From Bacteroidia bacterium (lineage in GTDB: Bacteria > Bacteroidota > Bacteroidia > NS11-12g > UBA955): a stretch of 64,000 nucleotides of DNA. The stretch spans positions 9,982 to 73,981 of the forward strand of contig CBFHGY010000002.1 in assembly GCA_965655465.1 (NCBI GenBank), written 5' to 3'. The notes under the pieces were generated by a model. It made no database searches, had not been told where the DNA came from, and saw only the letters and a program-made list of their open reading frames with translations. The translations under genes and the position numbers were made by a program. Position 1 is the stretch's first letter, and every line of letters begins with the position of its first letter. This document shows positions 10,225 through 12,084 of the stretch, in pieces.

Positions 10225-12084
10225 ATGGCTTTAACTGCAGAATTAAAAAAACAGGATACAAGCACACCACCTGCGAATACGGCCACCAACTCTGGTCCTG
10301 CATCTGGTGCGCAAACCACTTTGCCTGCCAATCAAGGTGCGAGTGTGGCTGGAAATTCCTCAGGTACCCCGGCACAAACGACTACGGTCCCAGCAAAACC
10401 AGCAGGACCTTCAGTTGCCGGTAGTGCGATGGCAATGGTTGGGGGCGCTCGTATGGCAGCAAGTGCCAAGAAAACAGTTGCCGATAGAACGGCTAAAAGC
10501 CAAACAATGACGGGTGCCGCCGTGGATATCAGTGCAGGTCGTGACGACAGTGATGACGAATCGGTGGGCGATCAGGCAAAAGGAGTTGTAGATGACGCTT
10601 TTGGGGTTATAGGAGATGCAAAGGATGAGTTTGAAGACGGTTATAAAGCCGTTAACGAAGCTCAAGGTAAAGAGGAAGACGATTTGTCTGAAACCGTACA
10701 AAAAGACATGAAAGGTCTTGCAGTGGCTGCAAGTGTTATGGGTACCGTTTCAGGTATAAAGGCAATGTCTGATTCTTTAACCACCTTAATGGATCCCAAT
10801 AAAGAGTTTTTAGATAAAATAGAGGCGGGTTTTGAAATGGGAGAAGGCATTGCTGGAACGGTAGGTGCAGCATCTGATTTTACCAATGAAGTGGCTGCTG
10901 AAGGTTCTAAAGTTGCTTCAGATTCGGAAGCAGTGAGTGCATGGTCGGGCAGTGTAGGGGATGCTATCGGAGCAATCAAAACAGGGTTCTTAACGGTAAA
11001 ACAATTGGTAACCACCATAAAAGAACGGAATGATAGTAGTAAGAGAGAAAAAGCTCTTGAAGGCTTGGGAATTGCGCAAGGCTTTGTAGAAACGGGGAAA
11101 TCGGTTTTAACTGTAATAAATGGAGTAAAAGAAGCCTTAGACGGTGGTACTTTCGGTGGAGTTGCTGCCGCGATTCCTGGATTAGACATTGCACTTTCGG
11201 GTATTGCTATAATCAAGGAGGGATTTTATCTGGTAGTATCTTATCGCGATTATAAGCAGATGATTGCAGAGAACGAATCGAAAGAAAAGGATCCTGGGTC
11301 AGTGGTAAAAGAAAAGTCTGAGGAACTTAGAAAATACGATGCTACCATTTCAAATTATAAAGTAGCGATTACAGAAGATGAGGAAAAATCTGCCATTCTG
11401 GAAGAAAAAATAAAAACGGCATCCGATGAAACAGGATTTTTTAAATCCACTTCAGATAAACAAAATCTGATCAATGAGAAGATTAAATTAGATGCTAATA
11501 TTCTTAGAATGAAGAATCAGACTGCAGCGGTTGCCGTTCAAAAAAATGATCTCGAAGCGGCAAATCCGGATGTCCTAGAATACGCAATGGTGGGCGAAAT
11601 CGCGGAAGCCAACAAAAAGAGAATCGTAAGAAATTCCATTTTATTGGTTGCGGAATTTGCAAATCTAGCCGGGTCTATTGCCAATTTAACGGGTGTAGGA
11701 GCTATAGCAGGCGCTAGTTTGAAAACAGCTTCAGCCTCGGTGAAGGTGGCATTGCCTGCTGCTCGCGCTGCGAAACAAGCAGGTCGAGATCGACATGCCG
11801 GTAAAGAGGCTCGGGGAGAATCTGATGTGATGACCAGCGGTTTTGATGCCAGTAAATCCACCGCAGCAAAAAGAGATTATCGCATGAAACAGGTGAATAC
11901 CCTCCTACAACAAATTCAAAATTTGAAAACATTGAAAGGAGCGGCATTTGATTCAAGAGCCAAACAATTAGAAATGTATATCTCAGCTATGGGAGTGAGT
12001 CCAGGTAAGTTATTTGCTCAGAATGGCAACCAAAAGGAACAAATAACCATGCTTTACAAAGCCTTAATACAAAGAGAAATTTAA
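10225..12084 (+). CDS. Hypothetical 619-aa protein; candidate eCIS payload or tail tape-measure (function unresolved)
   Basis: This is a long ORF directly after the ATPase. Residues 12-57 are A/T/P/S/G/N/Q-rich with no charged residue. An acidic block spans about aa 105-160. Two hydrophobic Gly/Ala-rich segments (aa 309-339 and 469-500) are separated by a charged coiled-coil-like region, and the C-terminus is basic. I saw no catalytic motif and no HExxH. Confidence 0.7.
   Translation: MALTAELKKQDTSTPPANTATNSGPASGAQTTLPANQGASVAGNSSGTPAQTTTVPAKPAGPSVAGSAMAMVGGARMAASAKKTVADRTAKSQTMTGAAVDISAGRDDSDDESVGDQAKGVVDDAFGVIGDAKDEFEDGYKAVNEAQGKEEDDLSETVQKDMKGLAVAASVMGTVSGIKAMSDSLTTLMDPNKEFLDKIEAGFEMGEGIAGTVGAASDFTNEVAAEGSKVASDSEAVSAWSGSVGDAIGAIKTGFLTVKQLVTTIKERNDSSKREKALEGLGIAQGFVETGKSVLTVINGVKEALDGGTFGGVAAAIPGLDIALSGIAIIKEGFYLVVSYRDYKQMIAENESKEKDPGSVVKEKSEELRKYDATISNYKVAITEDEEKSAILEEKIKTASDETGFFKSTSDKQNLINEKIKLDANILRMKNQTAAVAVQKNDLEAANPDVLEYAMVGEIAEANKKRIVRNSILLVAEFANLAGSIANLTGVGAIAGASLKTASASVKVALPAARAAKQAGRDRHAGKEARGESDVMTSGFDASKSTAAKRDYRMKQVNTLLQQIQNLKTLKGAAFDSRAKQLEMYISAMGVSPGKLFAQNGNQKEQITMLYKALIQREI

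Follow-up and report, generated by a model that had tools for sequence, protein, structure and literature searches.

The described systems closest to the locus analyzed here are those that carry protein cargos in a phage-tail-like injector. In AlgoCIS, the eCIS (extracellular contractile injection system) of Algoriphagus machipongonensis, Cgo1 and Cgo2 are experimentally shown lumen cargos and, in the passages of PMC8894135 that describe them, consist of a disordered N-terminal domain, a DUF4157 domain, and a variable C-terminal domain. The passages on loading in a second AlgoCIS study (bioRxiv 10.64898/2026.05.27.728243) report that loading of Cgo1 and Cgo2 needs the disordered N-terminal domain while DUF4157 is dispensable, and that loading depends on the AAA+ protein Alg15. 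In the documented architecture of eCIS effectors, DUF4157 precedes a toxin domain on its N-terminal side (PMC8213781). Payloads of the Photorhabdus virulence cassettes (PVC; Pdp1 and Pnf) and Afp18 likewise have an N-terminal disordered packaging signal and depend on AAA+ ATPases of the Afp15/Pvc15 type. Here, we examine the gene for a 619-aa protein in a 64,000-nt stretch of DNA from a Bacteroidia bacterium (assembly GCA_965655465.1, contig CBFHGY010000002.1, positions 9,982 to 73,981; hereafter the window). The minus strand at the left end of the window carries a contractile-injection-system operon that runs past the left edge. A plus-strand unit diverges from it and comprises genes for an AAA+ ATPase, the 619-aa protein in the middle, and a 155-aa protein; a convergent lpxB gene past the 155-aa gene marks the edge of the cluster.

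A first-pass annotation of this DNA had offered two readings of the 619-aa protein, a pore-forming payload or a tail tape measure. Homology and gene context indicate that it is very probably a cargo and not a tape measure. Moreover, the three plus-strand genes probably form the loader-cargo-chaperone module of an AlgoCIS-like system, in which an AAA+ ATPase and a 155-aa partner would serve a 619-aa, lumen-loaded effector. The parts of this unit are:

8777..10099, plus strand: AAA+ ATPase of the Afp15/Alg15 type, first gene of the plus-strand operon and putative cargo loader (PF00004, E 9e-27)
10225..12084, plus strand: cargo-type protein of 619 aa, made up of a disordered leader and, C-terminal to it, an all-helical domain of an unnamed family (open reading frame, ORF, with ATG start)
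10225..10563, plus strand: N-terminal leader of ∼113 aa, predicted to be disordered, with a 46-aa charge-free run rich in A/T/P/S/G/N/Q; putative loading sequence
11149..11241, plus strand: helix 1, hydrophobic and Gly/Ala-rich; contains the conserved motif IPGLDIA (Kyte-Doolittle 1.91; Hessa +4.9)
11629..11724, plus strand: hydrophobic Gly/Ala-rich helix 2 (IAGSIAxLTGVGA) with conserved basic flanks (Kyte-Doolittle 1.38; Hessa +4.6)
12095..12562, plus strand: acidic partner of 155 aa with a predicted fold like that of YbjN and of class I chaperones of type III secretion systems (T3SS); starts 10 nt past the cargo stop codon

The probable cargo family and its leaders

Everything that the first-pass annotation had read directly from the 619-aa gene was borne out. 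The reading frame 10225..12084 on the plus strand starts with ATG and encodes 619 aa. Residues 12 to 57 contain no Asp, Glu, Lys, or Arg, and these 46 residues are the longest charge-free run of the protein; with 25% of all residues charged, the chance of such a run anywhere in the protein is ∼1e-3 (0.748^46 × ∼570 starts). The start of the coding stretch is GC-richer than its surroundings, with a GC content of 0.51 to 0.56 at nt 10225 to 10524 versus 0.40 for the window. In the first 300 nt, with a GC content of 0.54 overall, this excess lies in codon positions 1 and 2 (0.56 and 0.68), while position 3 (0.37) is like that of the neighboring genes. The excess therefore reflects the Ala/Thr/Pro/Gly/Ser content of the leader and not foreign DNA, and horizontal transfer as its source was rejected on this ground. 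An acidic block (16 Asp and Glu versus 5 Lys and Arg at aa 101 to 150), two Gly/Ala-rich hydrophobic segments (19-residue Kyte-Doolittle maxima at aa 312 to 330 and 481 to 499), a K/E-rich helical spacer between them, and a basic tail (pI 10.2 for aa 501 to 619) are all present, and an HExxH motif is absent from the protein, as had been claimed.

In an AlphaFold2 (AF2) model built from 16 close sequences, aa 1 to 113 have predicted local distance difference test (pLDDT) scores of 22 to 27, and there is no secondary structure before residue 114. Beyond the leader, the model contains only helices and no strands, at a low overall confidence (pLDDT 49). The protein has no meaningful match among Pfam, NCBIfam, PHROG, or Protein Data Bank (PDB) sequences; a match to Endonuc-MspI at E 0.011 was set aside as chance. 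The fold check suggested at first pass, a Foldseek search of the AF2 model against the PDB, returned no match at E ≤ 0.001, from a model too poor for this negative to carry weight.

A word-indexed search with the 619-aa sequence yielded 19 close relatives at 52% identity or more, in which the N-terminal ∼100 aa are variable and of low complexity and the region corresponding to aa 170 to 619 is conserved. A family profile searched against 1.84 billion cluster representatives (clusters defined at 50% identity) matched 243 clusters at E ≤ 1e-3, including 68 at E ≤ 1e-30. Family members are 420 to 1172 aa long, and the profile match always lies at the C-terminus. In all 10 long members tested, PF13699 (eCIS_core, formerly DUF4157) is found N-terminal to the matched region, and the domain is also present in the homologues of three related loci (L008, L011, and L018). 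HExxH occurs in ∼65 of the 150 members listed, in the region where the tested members carry eCIS_core; among 46 members lacking HExxH, one has eCIS_core and none has another Pfam domain. To judge from this domain order, the conserved part sits C-terminal to DUF4157 in many members, i.e., in the slot normally held by toxin domains.

Related loci were located with a 10-sequence C-terminal alignment. They span Bacteroidia, Chitinophagales, Flavobacteriales, Cyclobacteriaceae (Rhodonellum and Aquiflexum), Mariniphaga, Tangfeifania, the cyanobacterium Leptolyngbya sp. PCC 6406, and an epsilonproteobacterial metagenome-assembled genome (MAG). Across phyla, identity over the last 185 aa is 40 to 49%; the closest genome record, L005 from a Bacteroidia MAG, reaches 97% over the same stretch. 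Among 83 diverse members, P318 and I322 in hydrophobic helix 1 are at least 90% conserved, as are N463, K465, R466, R469, G490, K500, R514, K517, Q518, and R521 around helix 2. A profile of these 83 members matched only designed coiled coils among PDB sequences. Members of the family differ in length because of added N-terminal modules (a beta-rich one or DUF4157), whereas the helical core does not contribute to the differences. Many homologues have an extra module of ∼100 aa between leader and helical domain (VTGVSHLVK...G.E..I..GQ.L.I...SRRGPNQEEFSA.DK.GP.HY.W(Y/F)KV...GK...LYVR.DVF); it is found in L008:7351-9831, L009:8189-10525, L012:8474-10561, L014:802-2793, and L017:96-2225, has no Pfam match, and is absent from the window protein.

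The leaders of several homologues are also found on other proteins. In L014 to L016 (Tangfeifania and Mariniphaga), a 663-aa homologue without DUF4157 has its first ∼60 residues in common with a separate DUF4157 protein encoded a few kb away (M..HAEKTQENK...FQFVDNRPET..Q.KL..MA.NS). In L018, a 906-aa homologue and the neighboring 545-aa DUF4157 protein share ∼90 N-terminal residues. In L011, two paralogues have nearly identical 100-aa leaders. As read from these sequences, this is the pattern of Cgo1 and Cgo2, in which a system-specific leader is joined to different C-terminal domains. The leader of the window protein is of a different, A/T/P-rich type. Like Cgo1 and Cgo2, the window protein begins with a disordered leader and ends in an "effector" domain, and its distant homologues have the order leader, DUF4157, C-terminal domain, with leaders common to sister cargos. 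Unlike them, it lacks DUF4157, and its C-terminal domain belongs to a different, unnamed helical family; the C-terminal domain of Cgo1 is given as a predicted metalloprotease in the cargo passages on AlgoCIS. Because other family members have the full layout with DUF4157, and given the precedent of Cgo1 and Cgo2, the 619-aa protein appears to be the version of this cargo family that consists of leader and C-terminal domain. In the divergent operon that begins with the ATPase gene and lies immediately next to the operon for cap to baseplate, its gene comes second. The payload reading of the first-pass annotation is supported for a cargo with a disordered N-terminal signal, by the DUF4157 architecture of distant homologues, the shared leaders, and the AAA+ neighbor; its pore-forming or translocator part is neither supported nor excluded.

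The breadth of the family bears on another explanation, namely, that the helical protein is an assembly or loading accessory that is not injected and stays in the producer or the particle as a lumen scaffold, a plug, or an AAA+ adaptor. For a toxin, the C-terminal domain is unusually conserved and widespread (243 clusters; 40 to 49% identity across phyla over the last 185 aa), the helical domain has no enzymatic motif, and its gene often lies directly beside the AAA+ gene. The combination of DUF4157 with the C-terminal domain and the shared leaders are, however, traits of cargos. Moreover, an orphan pair of cargo and partner genes among housekeeping genes (L012, Rhodonellum) and the two paralogues in L011 are patterns typical of effectors rather than of structural components. 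Altogether, we consider an accessory role improbable.

Three loci illustrate how the family is distributed. In Rhodonellum psychrophilum (L012:8474-10998), the orphan pair lies directly downstream of genes for a GntP permease, a trehalase, a major facilitator superfamily (MFS) transporter, and an M1 peptidase; within 10 kb on either side, phmmer searches with the window proteins, together with a Pfam scan of the upstream genes, found no ATPase or structural gene. In L011 (L011:8885-13617), two cargo paralogues, one of 545 aa without DUF4157 and one of 804 aa with it, flank a single partner gene. In Leptolyngbya sp. PCC 6406 (L009:5909-11038), only the trio of AAA+ ATPase (672 aa, with a winged-helix domain), cargo, and partner is found; its neighbors are unrelated (AbiEii, protochlorophyllide reductase, and dnaX with an intein), with no structural injection genes within 8 to 10 kb.

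The tape-measure alternative

The 619-aa protein resembles the tape measures of contractile injection systems (Afp14, Pvc14, and Alg14; PF19268, CIS_TMP) in several respects. It is long, largely helical, and Ala/Gly-rich, its size is similar to that of Alg14 (526 aa), and its gene adjoins the ATPase gene as afp14 adjoins afp15. On these grounds, it might set tail length in this lineage in place of a PF19268-type protein, the second reading of the first-pass annotation. The comparison with Afp14/Pvc14-type profiles that the annotation had called for went against it: the 619-aa protein has no PF19268 match even at E ≤ 1, and hhalign of its family against a tape-measure alignment gave a probability of 0.07%.

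Moreover, genuine tape measures coexist with homologues of the protein. Locus L008, from a Chitinophagales MAG, encodes a PF19268 protein of 531 aa (E 1.6e-106) immediately upstream of its AAA+ gene; immediately downstream of that gene come the 826-aa homologue and its partner. In L015 and L016, jackhmmer with the L008 protein identified PF19268 tape measures of 1055 aa (Pfam E 5e-73) and 1383 aa (3e-92), encoded in both loci ∼2.4 kb upstream of the homologue. The architecture differs as well. Mixed alpha/beta N- and C-terminal regions around a helical middle have been described for eCIS tape measures; the AF2 model of the 619-aa protein, at pLDDT 49, lacks such termini. The domain logic is also different, with length differences in the family arising in the N-terminal modules and with copies that are orphaned (L012) or duplicated (L011). 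Because CIS_TMP genes coexist with the homologues, a profile match is lacking, length varies at the N-terminus, and orphan and duplicated copies exist, the tape-measure reading is, at the level of sequence comparison, refuted for the family.

For the window itself, the first-pass annotation was right that no other tape-measure candidate is present: jackhmmer with a bona fide CIS_TMP protein finds none in the 64 kb. It had also proposed checking for a tape-measure gene to the left, and in the related clusters L019 to L023 no PF19268 gene is found in the ∼10 kb beyond the position of the left edge. The genes past gp25 in these clusters encode proteins of 1205/1197, 235, and ∼846 aa, none of which is a tape measure, and then a longer ORF considered below. 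A protein search with the 118-aa baseplate N-terminus at the window edge returned only fragments. The lack of a PF19268 gene in and near the window speaks for a substitute tape measure in this lineage; set against the coexisting CIS_TMP genes and the missing profile match, we regard it as highly improbable that the 619-aa protein is that substitute.

The Mariniphaga tape measures (L015:3028-6195, 1055 aa; L016:2027-6178, 1383 aa) are 2 to 2.6 times as long as Alg14. At ∼0.22 nm per residue, they would predict unusually long Mariniphaga particles of ∼230 to 300 nm, if the published coefficient holds.

The partner gene and its possible roles

The 155-aa gene, which the first-pass annotation had not flagged, is the most informative neighbor of the 619-aa gene. 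In local phmmer searches, a homologue of the partner adjoins the cargo homologue in 13 of 13 loci with a visible neighbor, downstream in 12 and upstream in L018, and this adjacency spans three phyla as represented by Bacteroidota, the cyanobacterium, and the epsilonproteobacterial MAG. Other DUF4157 proteins encoded in these loci have no such partner; the partner therefore appears to be specific to the helical C-terminal domain rather than to the leader. Members of the partner family are 142 to 169 aa long and acidic (pI 4.05 to 4.77; 4.07 for the window protein), with a maximal 19-residue Kyte-Doolittle value of at most 1.33. They have no transmembrane segment and, by eye, no signal peptide.

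PF10722 (YbjN) matches 4 of 11 partner family members at E ≤ 0.1, with a best E of 4.7e-5. The AF2 model of the window partner has the topology alpha-beta-beta-beta-beta-alpha-beta-beta-alpha, and all of its top 25 Foldseek matches in the PDB are YbjN-family proteins (PA14_16140, 2plg, YbjN, and AmyR), class I T3SS chaperones (SicP, ExsC, SchA, VecA, CesT, SigE, SycN-YscB, and SpcU), or the structural-genomics protein YPO0625, with probabilities of up to 1.0 and TM-scores of 0.45 to 0.62 but E-values of only 4e-3 to 0.2. That YbjN proteins have the fold of class I chaperones is known (PMC5398634). We therefore assign to the partner, with moderate confidence and on the basis of a predicted model, a fold like that of YbjN and class I chaperones.

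The comparison with T3SS extends beyond the predicted fold. Like class I chaperones, the partner is small and acidic, appears to have the same alpha/beta topology, and is encoded beside its presumed substrate. By analogy, the ATPase encoded in the same unit may be able to strip the chaperone and unfold the substrate, as in T3SS, and the 619-aa protein resembles Tir in having two separated hydrophobic segments. There are also differences. The machine in the window is a phage-tail-like injector. Its ATPase belongs to the classic AAA+ proteins, that of T3SS to the F1/RecA type. The sequence similarity of the partner is marginal, just under the PF10722 cut-off. Finally, class I chaperones bind an N-terminal region of their substrates, whereas the specificity of the partner seems to go with the C-terminal domain.

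The main rival for the role of the partner is immunity, in which case the 619-aa protein would be an injected toxin and its 155-aa neighbor would neutralize it in the producer or in sister cells. A small gene strictly adjacent to a domain in toxin position in 13 of 13 loci is a signature of immunity as well, a specificity that follows the C-terminal domain and not the leader fits this role, and some eCIS toxins have linked antitoxins (PMC8213781). Against these points stand the properties of the two proteins: the partner is acidic, apparently cytosolic, and predicted to have a class I chaperone/YbjN fold, and no enzymatic toxin domain is detectable in the cargo. In addition, toxins that act on membranes are usually countered by immunity proteins located in the membrane or the periplasm. 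We therefore consider a toxin-immunity pair unlikely, with the reservation that the roles of chaperone and immunity protein are not mutually exclusive.

The surrounding cluster and the proposed module

The minus-strand operon encodes the injector that the proposed module would serve. Its genes, in order of transcription, are:

8165..8524, minus strand: conserved 119-aa protein without family match, first gene of the structural operon
7593..8159, minus strand: cap/tail terminator of the short Pvc16_N type, like Alg16A (PF14065, E 2e-22; 188 aa versus 197 aa for Alg16A)
6766..7596, minus strand: probable cap adaptor (Alg16B-like), 276 aa, between cap and sheath (size, position, and weak PDB match)
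4839..6707, minus strand: sheath (PF17482 and PF04984)
3814..4796, minus strand: two tube proteins, 4365-4796 and 3814-4353 (PF06841, E 2e-41 and 2e-21)
2846..3583, minus strand: Afp7-like tube initiator, CIS_tube with a C-terminal LysM-like region (PF19266, E 2e-25; weak LysM match)
1079..2842, minus strand: VgrG-like spike (PF04717 and TIGR01646)
774..1073, minus strand: PAAR spike tip (ORF; the syntenic gene of L001 has PF05488)
361..801, minus strand: gp25-like sheath initiator (PF04965 and PF10934)
2..358, minus strand: N-terminus of a baseplate protein of ∼1205 aa (translation; full-length genes for 1205/1197 aa in L001 and L019 to L023)

The same gene arrangement is found in the relatives L001 to L007. 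Among PDB sequences, the 276-aa protein has a single and weak match (E 0.53), to 7adz_1A, the cap adaptor Alg16B of AlgoCIS; it also agrees in size and position with Alg16B (284 aa), which adjoins the short cap Alg16A (197 aa). On this evidence, the 276-aa gene probably encodes a cap adaptor, and the idea that it is a short tape measure was rejected. The short cap and the cap-adaptor-like gene suggest that the system is AlgoCIS-like, as does its Alg15-type AAA+ ATPase, which AlgoCIS also has. The PVC and Afp18 payloads, whose type of AAA+ ATPase is encoded in the window next to the cargo gene, have no sequence similarity to the 619-aa protein; PVC payloads differ further in having enzymatic toxin domains and in being encoded at the 3' end of the structural operon, whereas the cargo in the window is part of a divergent operon of ATPase, cargo, and partner. 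The immediate neighbor of the cargo homologue is an AAA+ gene in L005, L006, L007, L008, and L010, where this gene is upstream on the same strand, and in L009, where it is on the divergent strand. A scan of 8400-12800 for sigma-70 promoters and terminators gave nothing above shuffled expectation; such a scan is unsuited to Bacteroidota promoters.

Three further observations concern genes in and around the cluster. The 119-aa protein (8165-8524) is retained at E 1e-50 to 1e-75 in L005 to L007, L010, L020, and L021 and is better conserved than the cap gene in the more distant loci L010, L020, and L021; it may be an uncharacterized conserved component of AlgoCIS-like clusters. The gap at 3584-3813 on the minus strand, between the second tube gene and the Afp7-like gene, is occupied in the syntenic L001 by a 64-aa gene (3452-3646); by position, this gene and the gap of the window probably correspond to a small protein of the Afp6/Cis6 type. 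Finally, beyond lpxB and surE, ORFs of 138 and 151 aa on the minus strand (14959-15861) correspond by synteny to a PIN-domain gene and a DUF2281 gene of L001 and are probably a toxin-antitoxin pair.

The analysis shows how the family members are related and built, how the genes are linked, and to which fold class the partner is assigned; the steps of the mechanism are put forward as a proposal. In the producer, the partner would bind the C-terminal domain of the cargo, probably at the Gly/Ala-rich hydrophobic helices, and keep the cargo soluble and competent for loading. The AAA+ ATPase, by extension from experiments on AlgoCIS and PVC, would then recognize the leader, strip the partner, unfold the cargo, and thread it into the lumen of the tube. 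Contraction, as in established eCIS biology, would expel the cargo into or onto the target cell. In a last and speculative step, the conserved hydrophobic helices (IPGLDIA... and IAGSIAxLTGVGA...) and their basic flanks may engage the target membrane.

Several points weigh against this reading of the locus. First, DUF4157/eCIS_core is absent from the 619-aa protein itself, and no other ORF in the window has the leader of this protein or DUF4157; a second cargo may lie outside the window. The cargo assignment thus rests on homology and context. Because DUF4157 is dispensable for AlgoCIS loading, its absence is compatible with cargo status. Second, the low confidence of the 619-aa model and the lack of a significant fold match permit no fold-based inference for this protein. 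Third, the partner model is a single-sequence model (pLDDT 64; predicted template modeling score 0.52), none of its Foldseek matches reaches E ≤ 0.001, and the match of the window partner to PF10722 (E 2.4e-4) scores 21.8 bits at a cut-off of 22. Fourth, by the Hessa scale, neither of the hydrophobic segments is predicted to enter a membrane as a transmembrane helix. Fifth, the tape measure of the window's own lineage was not located, being absent from the 64-kb window; the ORF of >1085 aa that follows the ∼846-aa gene in related clusters (L020:16997-20252 and L021:17027-20252) runs off these loci and has no Pfam match and no significant CIS_TMP similarity. This ORF could be the tape measure or a fiber of the lineage.

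The Hessa sums of the two segments are +4.9 and +4.6 kcal/mol versus about −2.2 to −2.5 for real membrane proteins encoded in the window. By this comparison, the segments are Gly/Ala-rich helices of moderate hydrophobicity rather than classical transmembrane helices. Secreted effectors that insert into membranes, and that must avoid the membrane of their own producer, typically show such moderate hydrophobicity; helices buried in a soluble bundle would fit it equally well. In the Foldseek search of the PDB with the poor model of the 619-aa protein, no similarity to known pore-forming toxins or translocators was detected, with AhlB at rank 41 (E 1.3). We therefore treat a membrane-active function of the 619-aa protein as tentative, with the balance tilted against it. 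A more specific version is that the helical domain is a conserved, non-enzymatic, membrane-inserting translocator, ejected first or together with other cargos, that opens or extends a conduit through the target membrane, with the partner as a true secretion chaperone that hands the domain to the AAA+ unfoldase. This version is rather doubtful.

Literature searches turned up no paper that connects contractile injection systems to terms for YbjN or type III chaperones, and the passages of two AlgoCIS papers retrieved by keyword mention no chaperone-like partner gene, a further difference from AlgoCIS. A conserved pair of cargo and partner, often beside the gene for the loader ATPase, was thus not found described in the literature searched. 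How cargos are selected, kept unfolded, and threaded into the ∼4-nm lumen of the eCIS tube is an open question that limits the engineering of these systems into protein-delivery tools. Leaders, DUF4157, and the AAA+ ATPase are the only loading components implicated so far, and a partner resembling type III chaperones would add a fourth. With the ATPase gene directly beside the cargo-partner pair in the window and in 5 of 13 loci, ATPase, cargo, and partner form a compact three-gene unit. The cargo domain is widespread and has neither a family name nor a known activity, and any function found for it would annotate hundreds of loci. If the translocator version were true, injectors of at least three phyla would use the type III logic of chaperone, ATPase, and unfolded substrate, acquired independently or by recruitment of the YbjN fold.

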